Shown: positions 15,340 to 63,465 of the stretch, piece after piece
How the letters are laid out: each line of letters opens with the position of its first letter
Numbering within the stretch: the stretch's first letter is position 1
Sequence record: OL615012
DNA length: 64,000 bases
Strand: one strand, 5' to 3'
From: Shigella phage vB_SboM_Phaginator
Notes under the pieces: model-generated
What the model was told of the DNA's origin: nothing
What the model saw: only the letters and a program-made list of their open reading frames with translations
Database searches by the model: none
Program-made: the position numbers and the translations under genes

Positions 15340-15549
15340 TTAAATTACATGATTATTTATAATAAATTCTCGCGGAACGTTAAAATACCCAATTTTAGTT
15401 AATATAACAATATCGCCGTTAATAATTACCGGAGAATAATCTTCTGGAGCATTAAATTTCCAATGGGCTCTAATATTATATCCATCAGAACCAAATGCTC
15501 GAGTAGCCGGTCTCCCGGCTTTTTGCCACGCGTAGAAATCAAATTTCAT
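15340..15549 (-). CDS. hypothetical protein (69 aa)
   Basis: ORF-track ORF between soc and gene 56. Confidence 0.5.
   Translation of the reverse strand: MKFDFYAWQKAGRPATRAFGSDGYNIRAHWKFNAPEDYSPVIINGDIVILTKIGYFNVPREFIINNHVI
15354..15361 (-). promoter_or_regulatory. late promoter (TATAAATA)
   Basis: Exact TATAAATA on the minus strand ~45 nt upstream of the soc ATG. Confidence 0.7.
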
Positions 15550-16329: not shown

Positions 16330-16530
16330 ATGGTACAAAAATTAATGGCACTTGTTAATGCCATAAAAGGTAATAAAAAACGTATAGCTTTTACTATTTC
16401 TGCTATGGTAGGAATTTTACTCTGGAACTTTATTCTATCACCTGTTGCAATTGCACATGGTATTAATATTCCAGTAGTTACTCTTGATACATTTGTAGAT
16501 TTAGCATTTGCTTTAGTTGGGTTAATTTAA
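16330..16530 (+). CDS. small hydrophobic protein (66 aa) on the opposite strand
   Basis: Plus-strand ORF after AAGGAGG; hydrophobic sequence; stop overlaps the gene 61 stop; lies where T4 has dam as I recall. Confidence 0.35.
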   Translation: MVQKLMALVNAIKGNKKRIAFTISAMVGILLWNFILSPVAIAHGINIPVVTLDTFVDLAFALVGLI

Positions 16531-17555
16531 ATCTTAGCATATTTAGATAACCGCATTTTAGCCATCAACCCCTGGGCAATATTATTTTTCATATATTCCA
16601 TAATTTGTTCAGGGGTTGCACCTTCCTTTCTAATCATATCATTGACATCTTTTGATTTCCAGGGAGATTTATCCCAAAACATAACCCTTTCTCCTGCATC
16701 AACTAATTTAGTCATTCGCTTGATAGTGTCAGGGTGACGAGGTTCATTATCTAAAACCCACACTCGTCTATCTTTAAATGGAACAACTTCTAGGTCTAAT
16801 TGACCGCCAGTAATGGCTATACCATTTTCAATAAAAAGTGAATCGATGGGTCCTTCTAGAACATATACATCACCATCTTTAACTCGTTCAACACCGTAAA
16901 TTTTTGTTGCCTCAGGATAAGCTTTGATGGTGATATACTTTTGTGGAGCATCTTTCTTTAATGCACGTCCTTGAAAAGACTCAGCTTTTCCATTAGCATT
17001 ATAAATTGGAATAACAAGACGAGGCTCAGAAATTTCCTTTTTGTATGTTCCCGGTGCTATGCTATTAACTAATTTAGGCCATTCGGTTGTAAACCAAAGA
17101 TATTTCCATTTATCCTTTGGAATACAACGAGCTTTTACATATTTTATAATTGGATGGTCTTCCGCCAGTTTATCTAATCTAACACATGACGGAAGAGATT
17201 TAATTATTTTCTTCTCAGGTTGCTTAGGAAGTTCTTTAGGTTTTTCTACTGGACGACTTTTACCTTTTTCTTTTCTTATTTCAAAGATATACTCACGATA
17301 TAAATCAGGTTCAAACTCCTTTAAATATATTCCGATTGGTGCATGATAATTACAGTTATAACAATGAATATTTCCTTCATTATTATCGCCATAATACCAT
17401 CCACGGGCTTTATTTTGATCGGTTTTTGAATCTCCACAAACAGGACATCTAAACCGTAATTTAAAAGTTGAACTATTATTTACTTGTGTGAATTTAGGTA
17501 AATGAGCTAATGCACGGTATGCAAACTCATTATCAATCCAAGGTATTGATGACAT
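16527..17555 (-). CDS. 61: DNA primase (gp61)
   Basis: 342-aa ORF, T4 gp61 length; zinc ribbon CPVCGDS...CYNC. Confidence 0.9.
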   Translation of the reverse strand: MSSIPWIDNEFAYRALAHLPKFTQVNNSSTFKLRFRCPVCGDSKTDQNKARGWYYGDNNEGNIHCYNCNYHAPIGIYLKEFEPDLYREYIFEIRKEKGKSRPVEKPKELPKQPEKKIIKSLPSCVRLDKLAEDHPIIKYVKARCIPKDKWKYLWFTTEWPKLVNSIAPGTYKKEISEPRLVIPIYNANGKAESFQGRALKKDAPQKYITIKAYPEATKIYGVERVKDGDVYVLEGPIDSLFIENGIAITGGQLDLEVVPFKDRRVWVLDNEPRHPDTIKRMTKLVDAGERVMFWDKSPWKSKDVNDMIRKEGATPEQIMEYMKNNIAQGLMAKMRLSKYAKI

Positions 17556-17557
17556 TT

Positions 17558-17722
17558 TTACTCTTCTTTTTCTTTAGATTCCTCTTTTTTCTTTTTAGGA
17601 ATCTGTTCAGGACCTTTATTTACTACAGCACCTGACGTTGTTCCAGTAGAGATATTTTCAGGATTACCACCTGAATCTCCAGCGACCATATCTTCTTTAA
17701 TAAATTCTTTATATGTTTTCAT
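17558..17722 (-). CDS. small charged peptide with internal-protein-like N-terminus (54 aa)
   Basis: Hand-translated MKTYKEFIKEDMVAGDSGGNPENISTGTTSGAVVNKGPEQIPKKKKEESKEKEE; GAGGT SD; below the 60-aa track cutoff. Confidence 0.45.
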   Translation of the reverse strand: MKTYKEFIKEDMVAGDSGGNPENISTGTTSGAVVNKGPEQIPKKKKEESKEKEE

Positions 17723-17723
17723 A

Positions 17724-18080
17724 TTAACCTCTATTCATAAAAGCATTAAAAATTTGGTCATCAATAGATGGCGCAGTAATATTTTCTGCATCATTTAGCA
17801 AATCATTAATTTCATCAGATAGCATAACACATGTACCTTTATTTCCTGTAATTGTTACTGCACAATTACGAACGTTTTCTTTATCAAATTTTAGGTTAAT
17901 ATTTTCGTAGTGAAAATCCTTTAATGCCGAATATATCTTTAAAATGAAATTGTCTTTTACTACAATAAACCCAACCTCACTATTAAAACGCGGTTCATGG
18001 AAACTGTAATAAACCTTTTCATCTATAAAATCGTATGAAATTTTTTCCATTTTTAAATATGAAAATTCAGAACTATACAT
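17724..18080 (-). CDS. hypothetical protein (118 aa)
   Basis: C-terminus IDDQIFNAFMNRG and its 3' DNA repeat the end of the next ORF. Confidence 0.6.
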   Translation of the reverse strand: MYSSEFSYLKMEKISYDFIDEKVYYSFHEPRFNSEVGFIVVKDNFILKIYSALKDFHYENINLKFDKENVRNCAVTITGNKGTCVMLSDEINDLLNDAENITAPSIDDQIFNAFMNRG

Positions 18081-18081
18081 A

Positions 18082-18714
18082 TTAACCTTTATTCATAAAA
18101 GCATTAAAAATTTGATCGTCAATAGAAACTTTTACTTTAGGCTGTTCTTCAAACGGTAATTCATATCCACATATTACAATTTTGTGATCGATACCAAAAT
18201 ACACAGAAGCAATATTATTAATATTATTTTCAGTGAAATCTAAATCAACATCAATATCTTTTTGACTAACGCTCAAAGGATAATTAATACGAATAATTCG
18301 ATTATCTTTAACAAAGATTCCACCGACATACTCTGTGCTGCGTTTAAAGTTTACACGTTTCCTAAATGAAAAATATTCAGGTTCTTTATGGGCTCGACTC
18401 ATAGGGCTTAAAGTGTATTCCGAATATGAAATATCAAATCCTACACCTTCAATATGAGCCAAAGTGTCATGATTAAACCAATTATAATCGTATGCCAAAT
18501 CCATTAAATTGTAATATGTGAAAGGCACCGGATTAACATCATATGTTGTACCTTTAAAATCTGCCCAGGCAACGATTTCGTTATCTTTAACAATTACAAA
18601 AATTGTGCCAATAAGATATCCACGGTTATTTTCATCAGGCGTTATATTATAACATTGTGCATCAGGAAATTTACCGTATTTAAACGGTGGATTTTTGTGC
18701 ATATAATAAATCAT
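18082..18714 (-). CDS. hypothetical protein (210 aa)
   Basis: C-terminus IDDQIFNAFMNKG; T4 61.2-like position. Confidence 0.6.
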   Translation of the reverse strand: MIYYMHKNPPFKYGKFPDAQCYNITPDENNRGYLIGTIFVIVKDNEIVAWADFKGTTYDVNPVPFTYYNLMDLAYDYNWFNHDTLAHIEGVGFDISYSEYTLSPMSRAHKEPEYFSFRKRVNFKRSTEYVGGIFVKDNRIIRINYPLSVSQKDIDVDLDFTENNINNIASVYFGIDHKIVICGYELPFEEQPKVKVSIDDQIFNAFMNKG

Positions 18715-18715
18715 A

Positions 18716-19009
18716 TTATTCGCCTGTGATTTCGGTTACGATATTTTTGTTATTAAAGTTTTTATCGCAATACAGAACATAATTATACTGCATTACACCA
18801 TCAGACTTAAGTTGTTTTTGCACTTCAGCTTTCATTTCAGGACGATCGCGCTCAACGATATTCATAATATCCGCTTCAATTTGAGTTTCAACTTCAGTCT
18901 GATCTGCAGTCATAGACCATTCACACAAGTCTTTATCATATCCTGCCATAGAAGGCTGAGCAGCACAAGAAGCCAAAGTAAAAATTGTAGCAAAAATAAA
19001 TTTTTTCAT
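18716..19009 (-). CDS. sp: Spackle (periplasmic, signal peptide)
   Basis: 97-aa ORF with signal peptide MKKFIFATIFTLASCAAQP; same length and position as T4 sp. Confidence 0.8.
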   Translation of the reverse strand: MKKFIFATIFTLASCAAQPSMAGYDKDLCEWSMTADQTEVETQIEADIMNIVERDRPEMKAEVQKQLKSDGVMQYNYVLYCDKNFNNKNIVTEITGE

Positions 19010-19037
19010 GATAATCTCCTCAGTAGTTTATGTTTAT

Positions 19038-19067
19038 ATAGTATATCAATTTCCAACAAAAGTAAAC
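19038..19067 (-). promoter_or_regulatory. T4-type early promoter
   Basis: Minus strand GTTTAC-18 nt-TACTAT, then GAGGAG and the sp ATG. Confidence 0.55.
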
Positions 19068-19069
19068 AG

Positions 19070-19327
19070 CTATTTTAAAACTTCTGCATAATCACATGTT
19101 ACAAACTGTTTCTCTAACTTGACGATTTTACGAAAGTATCTTTTGCATTGGCGAATCTGTCGCTTCGTAGGGCGCACAGCAAACTTAATAAATTCCACTC
19201 GACCAAATGGAGGACTTTCTTCTGCTGGAATATCTAACACCAATTCCCACGTATCCGCAATAAGTGCCTTGAATTGAGTATTTTTCCTAACATTATACGG
19301 AGTAGGTTTAAATAAAACAATATGCAT
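19070..19327 (-). CDS. hypothetical protein (85 aa), T4 61.4 position
   Basis: ORF-track ORF between dmd and sp. Confidence 0.55.
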   Translation of the reverse strand: MHIVLFKPTPYNVRKNTQFKALIADTWELVLDIPAEESPPFGRVEFIKFAVRPTKRQIRQCKRYFRKIVKLEKQFVTCDYAEVLK

Positions 19328-19328
19328 A

Positions 19329-19511
19329 TTATCCTCTGCAATCTACTTCACACACTTGCTTGTCATCAATGAAAGCTTTAACTAATGCTTTATTAACTTC
19401 AGCATATTGAGTAGTAGCCCATTGAACGTCATCTTTCATCATTGTGATTTCTTTAGTAAACATGCTTTCATTCTTAAACCACCCCATAAAAACTACCTTT
19501 ACTAATTCCAT
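19329..19511 (-). CDS. dmd: Dmd antitoxin (inhibitor of host RnlA/LsoA)
   Basis: 60-aa ORF MELVKVVFMGWFKNES... matches T4 Dmd as recalled; directly downstream of gene 41. Confidence 0.85.
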   Translation of the reverse strand: MELVKVVFMGWFKNESMFTKEITMMKDDVQWATTQYAEVNKALVKAFIDDKQVCEVDCRG

Positions 19512-19540
19512 AACAATCTCCTCATTTAACCAACAAGACT

Positions 19541-19570
19541 ACTATACCATAGTCTTGCCAGCTTGTAAAC
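19541..19570 (-). promoter_or_regulatory. T4-type early promoter
   Basis: Minus strand GTTTAC-18 nt-TGGTATAGT, then GAGGAG and the dmd ATG. Confidence 0.65.
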
Positions 19571-20997
19571 TAAAATTTTAATTCATTTGCCAAAGCATCT
19601 AACTGAGCTCGAGTGGATTCATTTCTTTGATAGCGATTCTGTTCAGCCTGAATCTGCTGTGAACCTGCTACTTCACTCACTTCAGTTGGAGTAGAATCTT
19701 GTTCAATTTCTACCCATTTCTGATTTCCCTTTTGAACACCCATCAAAAACTTATTCCACTTATTTTTATCACCATATCGTGATTTGATTTGCTTAATGAG
19801 TTGCTGTTCAGCAGCTGCTAGCTCCTCGGTTTCAATGACCGCAAGCATAAAATCGGCTGTTGCTGGAAGACCGGCAGATTCTGCAATATCGCTCATGTTA
19901 ACATCAGAAGAATCCCAAGCTTGTTTACCAACCTGTGCTGCGGTCCAAAGAACAGTTTCGGTTTCAACAGCAAGAGCACGCAATTCTTCTGCGATGGCTT
20001 TAACAGTTGTGTAACTATTTTCTGAATAAACTCTGATGCGGCAAGATTTACAAATACCTAGATAGTCAACAATAATGATTGTTGGAACAAAATTCTTCTT
20101 GAGCTTTAATTCGTTTAAAAGCGATCGAAATGTATTAGCGTCTGCTCCACCAGTAGGATACTGTTTAACGATTAAACGGCCGAGAGTAGATTTCTCACGC
20201 CATTTTTCCATTTTTCCTTTATATTCAGCGTAAGAAATATGCCCATCATCAATGTCATCAAGAGAAACGTCAAGCATATTAGCATCAATACGTTTAGCAC
20301 AGACTTCTTCTGCCATTTCCATGGAAATGTAAAGAACGTTATGTCCGAGCTGCAAATAATCTGCTGCCAATGAACACAGACCTAATGACTTACCAACGTT
20401 AACACCAGCCATTAAAACGTTCAGTGTTCCAGTTTCAGCTCCGCCTTTAGTAATTTTATTTAGAATTTTGAGTTTAAATGGAACTTTACGAGCTTTATTC
20501 ATATAAGATAGCCAACGTGCTTCATAATCATCCATCCAATCATGACCAACGTAGCTATCAAATGAAATTGACAATGCTTGTCGCATGATGTCAGGAATAG
20601 CACCAACATCCGGCATTTTCTTATTTCGTTTTTCCGGAGGAAGCTCAGCATTAGTTTGAATTTCAATTATTTTAGATGTGGCGTTAAACATCGCCCTTTG
20701 CTGAACATATTTTTCTGTTTCTTTTACTAACCAGCTATGGTCTTCCGGAGAATCGGCCAGTTTTGAAATAAGTGTTTTTACACCAGAATATTCTGTTTCA
20801 GTAAATGAACTATTTTCTAACGCAACATTTAACGCATTAATAGATGGAACGCTATGGTACTCATTAACATGAGATTTAATTAATTTGAATGTATTTTTAG
20901 CTGGACCACTTTCAAAATATTCTGAATCCATATATGGCCAAACTTTTGAAAAATAAGCTTGATCAAATATGAGATGAGAAAGAATAATTTCTACCAC
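19570..20997 (-). CDS. 41: replicative DNA helicase (gp41)
   Basis: 475-aa ORF, T4 gp41 length; DnaB-like Walker A GVNVGKS. Confidence 0.9.
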   Translation of the reverse strand: MVEIILSHLIFDQAYFSKVWPYMDSEYFESGPAKNTFKLIKSHVNEYHSVPSINALNVALENSSFTETEYSGVKTLISKLADSPEDHSWLVKETEKYVQQRAMFNATSKIIEIQTNAELPPEKRNKKMPDVGAIPDIMRQALSISFDSYVGHDWMDDYEARWLSYMNKARKVPFKLKILNKITKGGAETGTLNVLMAGVNVGKSLGLCSLAADYLQLGHNVLYISMEMAEEVCAKRIDANMLDVSLDDIDDGHISYAEYKGKMEKWREKSTLGRLIVKQYPTGGADANTFRSLLNELKLKKNFVPTIIIVDYLGICKSCRIRVYSENSYTTVKAIAEELRALAVETETVLWTAAQVGKQAWDSSDVNMSDIAESAGLPATADFMLAVIETEELAAAEQQLIKQIKSRYGDKNKWNKFLMGVQKGNQKWVEIEQDSTPTEVSEVAGSQQIQAEQNRYQRNESTRAQLDALANELKF

Positions 20998-23451: not shown

Positions 23452-24182
23452 TCACCGTTATAATCTTTTTTCACAATATGAGTTTCGCCAGTATTCCACC
23501 AATGATCAACCAAGTAAAAATGACGAGAATATACATGAAGACTTCCAACATTCCATATAATAGAACCTGCTTTATACTGACGAGTTGAATCGCCGGCATT
23601 CAAATCAGATACTAATTTATCTAATACGTATTTTTGCCATGCATAATCATTACGGAATCCGAAGACCACATCATTTGAGCGCATGCTTACTACTGCATTG
23701 ACTTTCTTATCACGAATCAGGTACTGTACTGTATTAGTACACATGAAATCTGACATACCATCTTTATTGTAATCAAATTGCATGGATGGACGAGTATAAA
23801 TCATGATACCACGTCGAGAATCAGGATTTTGACCAAGTTCAGCTAAACACATATCATACTGGGCATAGTTATCTTCTGACCAAATAGCCCAACCATAATT
23901 CGAGTTAATTTCGCCTTTAGAAGATGCTACCTGCTGCCAAATCTTTGGTGTTTCACCTGGAATATCTTTAACAAACAAGCTCTTAGATTTATACCATTCA
24001 AGTTCACGCTGAATGTATTCATCATTAAGAGCGCCAAAAATAAACGGTTCATCTGCTACAAATGATGCGCCAATAATTTCAATAGTTTTAACACCAGTTT
24101 TATCAACTACGAAATCTTTTTCTTTTAATGCAAGCCCCAAATGAAGACGGATTTCTTCAACTGTCATAGAGTCACTAATCAT
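23442..24182 (-). CDS. 42: dCMP hydroxymethylase (gp42)
   Basis: 246-aa ORF, T4 gp42 length; thymidylate-synthase-like fold. Confidence 0.9.
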   Translation of the reverse strand: MISDSMTVEEIRLHLGLALKEKDFVVDKTGVKTIEIIGASFVADEPFIFGALNDEYIQRELEWYKSKSLFVKDIPGETPKIWQQVASSKGEINSNYGWAIWSEDNYAQYDMCLAELGQNPDSRRGIMIYTRPSMQFDYNKDGMSDFMCTNTVQYLIRDKKVNAVVSMRSNDVVFGFRNDYAWQKYVLDKLVSDLNAGDSTRQYKAGSIIWNVGSLHVYSRHFYLVDHWWNTGETHIVKKDYNGEWK

Positions 24183-61593: not shown

Positions 61594-62172
61594 TTAGGAA
61601 TTACGGGCTGCATTAGCAACGGCGTAAGCGTACTGGACATTAGCGTCTTTAAACGTACCTTTAGAGGTATCTATTTCTGCCTTAAAGCCGCCTTTAGCCA
61701 TAACATCGGCAAATTCTTTACGGAAAGCCATTGCATCAAGACCTTTCCATGATGATTTATGCTTGGCAAATTCAAGACCAGCGTAGTTGACAGCCTTAGC
61801 TAATTTATTATCAATAACCCATTTACCGGCTTTAGGCACAAACTTCGGGCCTTTTTGTTTAGAGAACAGTTTTAAATTCCAGCGACGAAGGTCACTGTCG
61901 GCTTTAACAAAAGCTGCGTCTAAGTTACTAGCAACAACATCTTCAATATGAGCAAATTTAAGTCCGTCAACTTCAATATTTAGATCGTTACGCCAGCGAA
62001 GTCCTTCCCAAGCGAAGGCTTTAAAGTCGGAAGCCTTTGTAGCTAAGTACCGTTCAATAGGAGCTGTTTTAGGGTCAAAGCCGTTTCCCGATCGGTAGGT
62101 CCACTCATCTTTATTAATGCCTTTGGCCTTTACTATAGAAGCTTCGGCAATAAATTCTTGATAGGTTTTCAT
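61594..62172 (-). CDS. ipIII: internal protein, IPIII-like (capsid targeting sequence)
   Basis: 192-aa basic ORF beginning MKTYQEFIAEA, the T4 internal-protein targeting sequence; T4 IPIII ~194 aa. Confidence 0.75.
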   Translation of the reverse strand: MKTYQEFIAEASIVKAKGINKDEWTYRSGNGFDPKTAPIERYLATKASDFKAFAWEGLRWRNDLNIEVDGLKFAHIEDVVASNLDAAFVKADSDLRRWNLKLFSKQKGPKFVPKAGKWVIDNKLAKAVNYAGLEFAKHKSSWKGLDAMAFRKEFADVMAKGGFKAEIDTSKGTFKDANVQYAYAVANAARNS

Positions 62173-62233: not shown

Positions 62234-62494
62234 TTAAGCTTTACCGCCAGAAATAATTCCGAAGTTGTTAAAATCATATCCAATATCGTCAACATCTACT
62301 TTAGGACTTGCTACAGCATAAGCAATTTCACTACGTTTTGCACAGGTGTTGATTTCTTTACCATCGCCACCTAAGAAAGAATACCCATTACGTTTTAATG
62401 AGCCAAAGTCTTCCGCATCACCAATGAAAGCTTTAACTTTAAATTTAGAACCTTTGGCATCTGCTTCAACGATAAATTCTTGATACATTTTCAT
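62234..62494 (-). CDS. internal protein, IPII-like (capsid targeting sequence)
   Basis: 86-aa ORF beginning MKMYQEFIVEA. Confidence 0.65.
   Translation of the reverse strand: MKMYQEFIVEADAKGSKFKVKAFIGDAEDFGSLKRNGYSFLGGDGKEINTCAKRSEIAYAVASPKVDVDDIGYDFNNFGIISGGKA

Positions 62495-62662: not shown

Positions 62663-63465
<803 letters not shown>

Follow-up and report, generated by a model that had tools for sequence, protein, structure and literature searches.

Gene 61.1 of Shigella phage vB_SboM_Phaginator encodes a small protein resembling the cleavage-site segment of major capsid protein gp23 that may be a substrate of the prohead protease

What is the product of a 54-codon reading frame packed tightly against the primase gene of a T4-type phage, and does its opening stretch, which resembles the targeting sequence of internal head proteins, connect it with the phage head? 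The frame lies on the minus strand at 17558..17722 of a 64,000-nucleotide (nt) stretch of Shigella phage vB_SboM_Phaginator (sequence record OL615012), hereafter the window, which is roughly the first 64 kb of this T4-type genome. The first-pass annotation, made from the sequence alone, had reported a minus-strand open reading frame (ORF) of 54 codons with a GAGGT Shine-Dalgarno (SD) sequence, which is present exactly as described, and had called the gene unannotated, which is true only for the ORF track available to its reader, with its cutoff of 60 amino acids (aa). The ORF is gene 61.1 of the T4-type phages (Tequatrovirus), which already carries the annotation 61.1 or hypothetical protein in T4, T2, RB14, JS98, RB49 and the nearest relative, REP1. 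Its product, gp61.1 (MKTYKEFIKEDMVAGDSGGNPENISTGTTSGAVVNKGPEQIPKKKKEESKEKEE), is a small, probably disordered protein of three parts, namely a leader resembling the capsid-targeting sequence (CTS), a segment of about 33 residues homologous to the N-terminus of gp23*, the mature form of the major capsid protein, and a lysine-rich tail. The earlier interpretation thus stands as regards a real gene with a CTS-like leader, but it missed the likeness of the conserved part to the major capsid protein gp23, as well as the existing annotation. The elements of the gene are:

17558..17722, minus strand: coding sequence of gene 61.1, 54 codons, with a TAA stop at 17558-17560 (ORF list and sequence)
17693..17722, minus strand: codons 1-10, the CTS-like leader MKTYKEFIKE, ending in the I-K-E motif
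between 17693 and 17692, minus strand: predicted gp21 cut after Glu10, which aligns with gp23 Glu65
17594..17692, minus strand: codons 11-43, the gp23*-like segment DMVAGDSGGNPENISTGTTSGAVVNKGPEQIPK, homologous to gp23 residues 66-98
17561..17593, minus strand: codons 44-54, the charged C-terminal tail KKKEESKEKEE (family listing and count)
17727..17731, minus strand: SD sequence GAGGT, within the final codons of the 118-aa ORF upstream (direct sequence reading)

The spacing between GAGGT and the ATG is 4 nt, the ATG begins 1 nt past the stop of the upstream 118-aa ORF, and the stop of 61.1 is separated from the ATG of gene 61 (primase) by a gap of 2 nt. No longer in-frame start is possible.

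The relation to gp23 is seen at several levels of sequence comparison. Residues 2-38 of gp61.1 align without gaps with residues 57-93 of gp23 in BLASTP (16/37 identities, E 1e-8), where the gp23 side reads QAFGSFLTE, then, past the Glu65/Ala66 maturation cut, AEIGGDHGYNATNIAAGQTSGAVTQIGP, and the gp61.1 side reads KTYKEFIKE and, past the corresponding point, DMVAGDSGGNPENISTGTTSGAVVNKGP. gp61.1 is collinear with gp23 residues 55-98, and Glu10 falls on Glu65 of gp23, the last of the 65 N-terminal residues that are removed by gp21 (PMC9546572). A search of all PDB sequences with a profile built from 14 family members returned only T4 gp23 (E 1.2e-5, residues 58-94), and hhalign matched the short family to six diverse gp23 N-termini (Prob 97.4%, E 1.5e-11) and the long-form family to gp23 residues 61-101 (Prob 97.7%, E 1.6e-12). 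Lys43 opens the lysine run of gp61.1, yet it is counted in the hhalign block (codons 11-43). Across six distant phages the 61.1 core is identical to gp23 at 15-21 of 36 positions, the invariant columns common to both proteins being the P1 glutamate, G-D, I, three further glycines and P, and the motif common to gp61.1 and gp23 is GD.G....I..G..SGA....GP. As judged from these alignments, the conserved part of the family is the gp23-like segment around the cleavage site, not the leader.

The segment of gp23 that is matched has a documented part in head assembly. Residues 66-105 lie inside the unexpanded head, where they probably contacted the scaffolding core, and the head-length mutations A66D, A94V and G97S map to them; upon expansion the segment moves outside to form the N-arm and N-fist, part of the Soc binding site (PMC9546572). 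The gp23 similarity stops at about residue 98, and the tail of gp61.1 is unrelated to what comes next in gp23; a decoy role towards Lit/Gol was set aside. A recent copy of gene 23 was also ruled out, since the nucleotide identity is only 56/111, which indicates an old homology rather than a recent duplicate. The name 'major capsid domain-containing protein', given automatically in some records, overstates the match and probably reflects this short likeness to gp23. Word-index protein searches, whether made with the gp23 N-terminus or a long form, yielded almost nothing useful. The 61.1 module is found in approximately 1,432 records, compared with approximately 1,590 in which the capsid protein spans the N-terminal segment of T4 type. 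For the capsid proteins of cyanophages and Vi01-like phages, the match to the query starts only at about residue 19-30, and the ten commonest names in the 61.1 matches include no cyanophage genus.

The leader MKTYKEFIKE shares 8/10 identities with MKTYQEFIAE. The claim of the first-pass annotation that the first 10 residues match the internal-protein targeting sequence is borne out well above the window background: of the 2,724 ATG sites that the window contains, no more than four have at least 5/10 identities to MKTYQEFIAE, namely three internal-protein (IP) genes and 61.1, and all remaining sites have at most 4/10, so that the similarity of the leader is not due to chance. The three internal-protein-type genes are:

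61594..62172, minus strand: internal-protein-type gene, leader MKTYQEFIAE
62234..62494, minus strand: internal-protein-type gene, leader MKMYQEFIVE
62663..62944, minus strand: internal-protein-type gene

For the third of these, the ORF tool placed the start at TTG 62959, and the leader begins at ATG 62944. In the CTS of IPIII, as reviewed from the work of Mullaney and Black, targeting depends on residues 4 and 7, and processing on residues 8 and 10 (PMC9026906). All four key residues are retained in gp61.1 (Y4, F7, I8 and E10), and its K5 and K9 are both seen in IP-type leaders of JS98 (MKTYKEFIAEA and MKTYQEFIKES). An aromatic-x-x-hydrophobic-hydrophobic leader pattern is present in 29/37 short-form homologues from many lineages compared with 32/175 window ORFs, and the strict CTS-like pattern in 18/37 compared with 3/175; leaders of short forms include KTFNEFLKE, KTFDEFVE, IKFKDFVE and IGFKQFVEE. 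Since gp23 reads F59-x-x-F62-L63-x-E65 ahead of its cut, one pattern unites this segment with the leaders of the internal proteins and of 61.1. The aromatic-x-x-F-L-x-E form of it is also fitted by MAGFNQFLVEE, which opens the last 39 residues of an Alt-like protein in RB14 (alt.-2, 23507-23623, minus strand) and may be connected with the processing by gp21 that has been reported for the C-terminus of Alt.

The junction between the leader and the gp23*-like segment has the features of a gp21 site. gp21 prefers I/L-x-E (PMC12991175), and gp61.1 carries I8-K9-E10 aligned with the proven cut site of gp23. An exhaustive profile search gave 50 cluster representatives of the family. Motif counts were taken over 70 family sequences: P1 is Glu in 70/70 members, P3 is hydrophobic (L, I, V, M or F) in 65/70, with 44/70 having L or I there, and the background of hydrophobic-x-E elsewhere in the family proteins is 3.3%. 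A Lys/Arg-rich tail is present in 69/70. A disordered loop with an I/L-x-E motif lets gp21 trigger a host sensor (PMC12991175), so that a disordered IKE site is a plausible target. As a copy of the gp23 stretch around the maturation cut, gp61.1 is probably cut by the prohead protease gp21. From a precursor of 5,901 Da, the predicted product has 44 residues, 4,602 Da, an isoelectric point (pI) of 5.0 and Asp11 at its N-terminus (DMVAGDSGGNPENISTGTTSGAVVNK).

The identity of the gene and its conservation are well documented. gp61.1 matches PHROG 1823 (E 7e-34, residues 1-54 on profile positions 1-54), and its T4 counterpart is T4p034 (18966..19130; UniProt P39228). The proteins of T2, RB14 and T6 are 96-100% identical to it, and the surrounding 901-nt stretch is 99.9% identical to Escherichia phage REP1 and at least 95% identical to about 500 Tequatrovirus records. 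By tblastn with the gp61.1 peptide, 1,432 phage records were found, and the reading frame, whose conservation across T-even genomes had been proposed as a check by the first-pass annotation, is kept from T4 to Vibrio and Aeromonas phages. The ratio of non-synonymous to synonymous substitution rates (dN/dS) against the Mosigvirus homologue is 0.13 over the conserved core, and against JS98 the proportions of non-synonymous (pN) and synonymous (pS) differences in the core are 0.07 and 0.78, where the synonymous sites are saturated; on these values strong purifying selection is acting on 61.1. Pfam (at E up to 1), NCBIfam and PADLOC models gave no match to gp61.1. An Rfam scan of 16500-19600 found nothing, hence no RNA element has to be invoked. 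In the literature searched, 61.1, gp61.1, T4p034 and P39228 turned up only in genome tables, and no paper on function, leader or gp23 likeness was found there.

Short forms of the family have 50-70 aa, whereas the long forms have 130-165 aa with the 61.1 module at the C-terminus, so that the cleavage-type site is internal and there is no N-terminal targeting leader. The N-domain of the long forms occurs in 613 phage records, including Mosigvirus, Slopekvirus, Acinetobacter, Aeromonas and Vibrio phages. In the AlphaFold2 model of a long-form relative, residues 1-70 are helical, with a block-mean predicted local distance difference test score (pLDDT) of 79-97, and the 61.1 module has a pLDDT of about 50-58, which suggests that the module is disordered. 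Fold searches of the long-form N-domain gave no functional lead; the domain does not align with the gp23 propeptide, and the long-form tail aligns with gp23 GMVRR. When the DNA is aligned with a Mosigvirus long form, YKEF-IKE (from Tyr4) lines up with FKELPLFE, and the ATG replaces an internal codon. This suggests that 61.1 of Tequatrovirus is an N-terminally truncated version of the long form and that residues 4-10 of the leader share descent with the long-form pre-cleavage segment; no remnant of the long-form N-domain is found in the window. In RB69 (AY303349.1, 877-1343) the long-form 61.1 is frameshifted into RB69ORF032c and 61.1, either by a sequencing error or by a real disruption, and its close relative SHSML-52-1 has one intact 155-aa ORF. 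The metagenomic relatives P0040, P0054 and P0058 carry, after the 61.1 module and basic tail, a second leader-like stretch (NFKQFVEGLE, DFKQFVESLE, GFKAFMEG), and the same ORF continues into a further domain of about 90 residues; they look like two leader-bearing units that are fused or read through.

Taken as a whole, these comparisons make it about an even chance that the prohead core or gp21 recognises gp61.1, and that the protein is cut after Glu10 to a 44-residue peptide. The protein would be recognised in the manner of the gp23 N-terminal region and the internal-protein leaders, would dock in the assembling prohead, either at the scaffolding core or at gp21, and would be cut after I-K-E10 to leave a peptide of 44 residues and 4.6 kDa. 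In the head it may occupy or compete for the partner of the N-terminal arm of gp23, or may modulate gp21. A role in head assembly or maturation appears more likely than that of an injected effector, since what the family conserves is the segment resembling gp23 and not a separate effector domain.

Several observations weigh against such processing in the prohead. The leader of JS98 61.1 has drifted to MKSFKEVMNE (F7V, I8M), whereas the internal proteins of the same phage retain MKTY.EF[IL].E. The residue after the predicted cut is acidic (D/E) in 38/70 family members, which could mean a poor substrate or a pseudo-substrate. A mass-spectrometry study of the T4 head lists nine processed head proteins without gp61.1, which it does not name elsewhere either, and the protein is undetected in the T4 time-course proteome (PMC9697503, Table S2). 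The gene stays upstream of the primase gene and is not among the head genes. Cognate co-variation, in which each 61.1 would be closer to the gp23 of its own phage, was rejected over six gp23/61.1 pairs (sum 106 against a permutation mean of 104.3, p ~0.3), an early impression from KP27 and RB49 having failed. No exact late promoter TATAAATA was found near 61.1, the nearest being at 15354 and 56194, whereas the internal-protein genes lie downstream of two exact TATAAATA sites (63443 and 63456). A scan of the window allowing one mismatch is uninformative, as it equals chance (220 observed against 220.8 expected). The promoter-like sequences close to the gene are:

19031-19038, minus strand: one-mismatch late-promoter variant TATAAACA, just upstream of sp and adjoining an early-type promoter
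17721..17747, minus strand: promoter-like element TGCTTTTA, 11 nt, TAATAT; phage Lutter has a 27-nt 'promoter' annotated at the corresponding position

Phage Lutter also has an annotated 8-nt promoter at the place equivalent to TATAAACA, and if this is an active late variant, the block from sp to 61, including 61.1, could be transcribed late as well. The element at 17721..17747, presumably of MotA type according to the T4 middle-promoter consensus, overlaps the start codon of 61.1, so that any transcript initiated there would start within 61.1 and supply gene 61 rather than 61.1; a second copy (18079-18105, minus strand) lies upstream of the 118-aa ORF, in the direct repeat described below. 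The 61.1 transcript of T4 is classed as early (PMC9697503, Table S2). This is compatible with a role in the head, since the ipII and ipIII transcripts of T4 are also early and their proteins late (PMC9697503, Table S2).

The early transcript would also fit a gp61.1 that acts in the cytoplasm as a mimic of the gp23 maturation site, either as an early-made pseudo-substrate that restrains or buffers gp21, or as a decoy for defences that sense gp23 or gp21, an explanation that is possible but on balance doubtful. It agrees with the lack of a late promoter nearby and with the acidic residue past the cut, which could make a poor substrate, and both kinds of sensing are documented: CmdTAC is set off when gp23 binds a SecB-like chaperone (PMC11618068), and the cyclic-oligonucleotide-based antiphage signalling system (CBASS) is triggered by gp21 activity (PMC12991175). 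Gene 61.1 also lies at the edge of a published anti-toxin island, comprising dmd, tifA (61.4) and adfA (61.2) between 41 and 61.1. However, the accessory anti-defence genes next to it are conserved far less widely and are less fixed in position, and no homology of gp61.1 to Dmd, TifA, AdfA or other known anti-defence proteins was found. Moreover, T4, which has 61.1, is still sensitive to CmdTAC (PMC11618068) and to the EcCdnG CBASS operon (PMC12991175). The bolder version, in which gp61.1 is a free-standing mimic of the capsid maturation site that is retained throughout the T4-like phages, is made before gp23 and either tunes gp21 as a pseudo-substrate or timer or blunts the sensors of gp23 and gp21, is quite unlikely; under it, the internal-protein leaders could descend from the same ancient capsid cleavage segment.

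The minus-strand gene order in the window is 41 (helicase), dmd, 61.4, sp, 61.2, the 118-aa ORF, 61.1, 61 (primase) and 56. The window was compared with RB14, RB49, JS98, RB69, SHSML-52-1, KP27, MP1, DP45, SW69-9 and VH7D, so that 11 phages of seven host genera (Escherichia, Shigella, Klebsiella, Morganella, Acinetobacter, Aeromonas and Vibrio) were covered. In all 11, 61.1 is upstream of the primase gene, directly so in most and within three small genes in KP27 and RB49, and in Morganella phage MP1 and Aeromonas phage SW69-9 it is the sole gene between 41 and 61. This fixed position, the tight packing against gene 61 and the Lys/Arg-rich tail of nearly all members would suit an accessory of DNA replication that acts on the primosome or on DNA, its capsid likeness being a relic of origin. 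Such a role is nevertheless improbable, for it gives no reason to keep the conserved residues, which are exactly those common with gp23, including the cleavage-site glutamate. No replication family was matched in Pfam or NCBIfam, the fold search of the long-form N-domain was uninformative in this respect too, and T4-like gene order often mixes functions, as exemplified by head-assembly gene 40, which lies just upstream of 41.

The proposal of the first-pass annotation, that the peptide is packaged and injected, would have the 44-residue product retained in the head alongside the DNA, to become active in the next host cell. It draws on the CTS-like leader, and a basic tail could hold the peptide on DNA. 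The tail of the present protein is mixed (KKKKEESKEKEE) and the product acidic overall, with the pI given above, and what remains after the cut is only the gp23-like disordered segment and a short charged tail. Cleaved scaffold peptides probably leave the unexpanded head through openings of 14-17 Å at the centres of its capsomers (PMC9546572), and gp61.1 is seen neither in the T4 time-course proteome nor among the listed processed head proteins, all of which leaves injection with only a slim chance. That the frame is a chance ORF or a decaying, functionless remnant, as its shortness and the undetected T4 protein might suggest, is almost certainly wrong, being refuted by the conservation of frame and sequence from T4 to Vibrio and Aeromonas phages and opposed by the low dN/dS, the SD sequence and the tight spacing with both neighbours.

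The neighbouring elements on the upstream side include:

18082..18714, minus strand: AdfA (anti-DarT factor A), gene 61.2, 210 aa (PF23813, E 3e-139)
17724..18080, minus strand: 118-aa ORF, matching only the C-terminal half of AdfA (E 1e-7)
17720..17768 and 18078-18126: 49-nt direct repeat, 94% identical (repeat search)

AdfA and the 118-aa ORF have the common ending SIDDQIFNAFMN(R/K)G. T4 has only 61.2 and RB14 only the 118-aa form, and the window has both. Each copy of the 49-nt repeat holds the 3' end of an AdfA-type ORF, an SD sequence and the next ATG, and 61.1 and the 118-aa ORF therefore have identical translation-initiation regions; the repeat looks like a joint left by recombination through which the 118-aa ORF was inserted or duplicated. 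On the other side of the primase gene, a 66-aa ORF on the plus strand (16330..16530) lies between the minus-strand genes 56 and 61, with a 4-nt overlap between its 3' end and the end of gene 61. Its counterparts are RB32ORF030w, annotated in RB14, and a hypothetical protein in Lutter, and a plus-strand gene is unusual in this block.

Gene 61.1 itself is already known, and the hypothesis that its product is a gp21 substrate with a targeting leader may be new. It provides a concrete and cheaply tested proposal for a widely conserved T4 gene, which would encode a detached protease-recognition segment of the capsid protein with a leader matching the CTS. If gp61.1 is cut or packaged, it would be a new member of the small set of T4 head-protease substrates, would tie the origin of targeting leaders to the cleavage site of the capsid protein, and would supply T4 head-loading technology with a natural minimal tag. 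If it is a pseudo-substrate or decoy, it would bear on the recent findings of bacterial sensing of the T4 capsid protein and prohead protease.

Among the known systems, T4 gene 61.1 is the same gene, with 54 codons and a position between 61.2 and 61, although the T4 locus lacks the 118-aa paralogue of the AdfA C-terminus that is present here between 61.2 and 61.1; residues 1-42 of gp61.1 from T2 and RB14 are 100% identical to those of the present protein. The long forms (PHROG 2086; Mosigvirus, Slopekvirus, Acinetobacter, Morganella and Vibrio phages) have the same C-terminal module, hydrophobic-x-E junction and position upstream of the primase gene, and carry an extra helical N-domain of about 100 residues (motif W..A.K.GIID..G) that is absent from gp61.1. 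In gp23 (PF07068) only residues 55-98 are matched by gp61.1, which has no Pfam match and no capsid fold, and fixed differences separate the two families, gp23 having A-E-I/V-G/A-G-D-H-G-Y where 61.1 has D-M-V-A-G-D-S-G-G. The CTS of IPII and IPIII (MKTYQEFIAE; Mullaney and Black 1996, PMC9026906) likewise has 10 residues and ends in I-x-E as in gp61.1, but the bodies of IPII and IPIII are folded and basic, whereas that of gp61.1 is a gp23-like, probably disordered peptide, and its gene lies in the 41-61 cluster, outside the internal-protein loci. T4 gp67 and gp68 are small prohead core proteins cut by gp21 at L/I-x-E, and gp61.1 is also small and has I-x-E; their genes, unlike 61.1, belong to the late head cluster 20-67-68-21-22-23.

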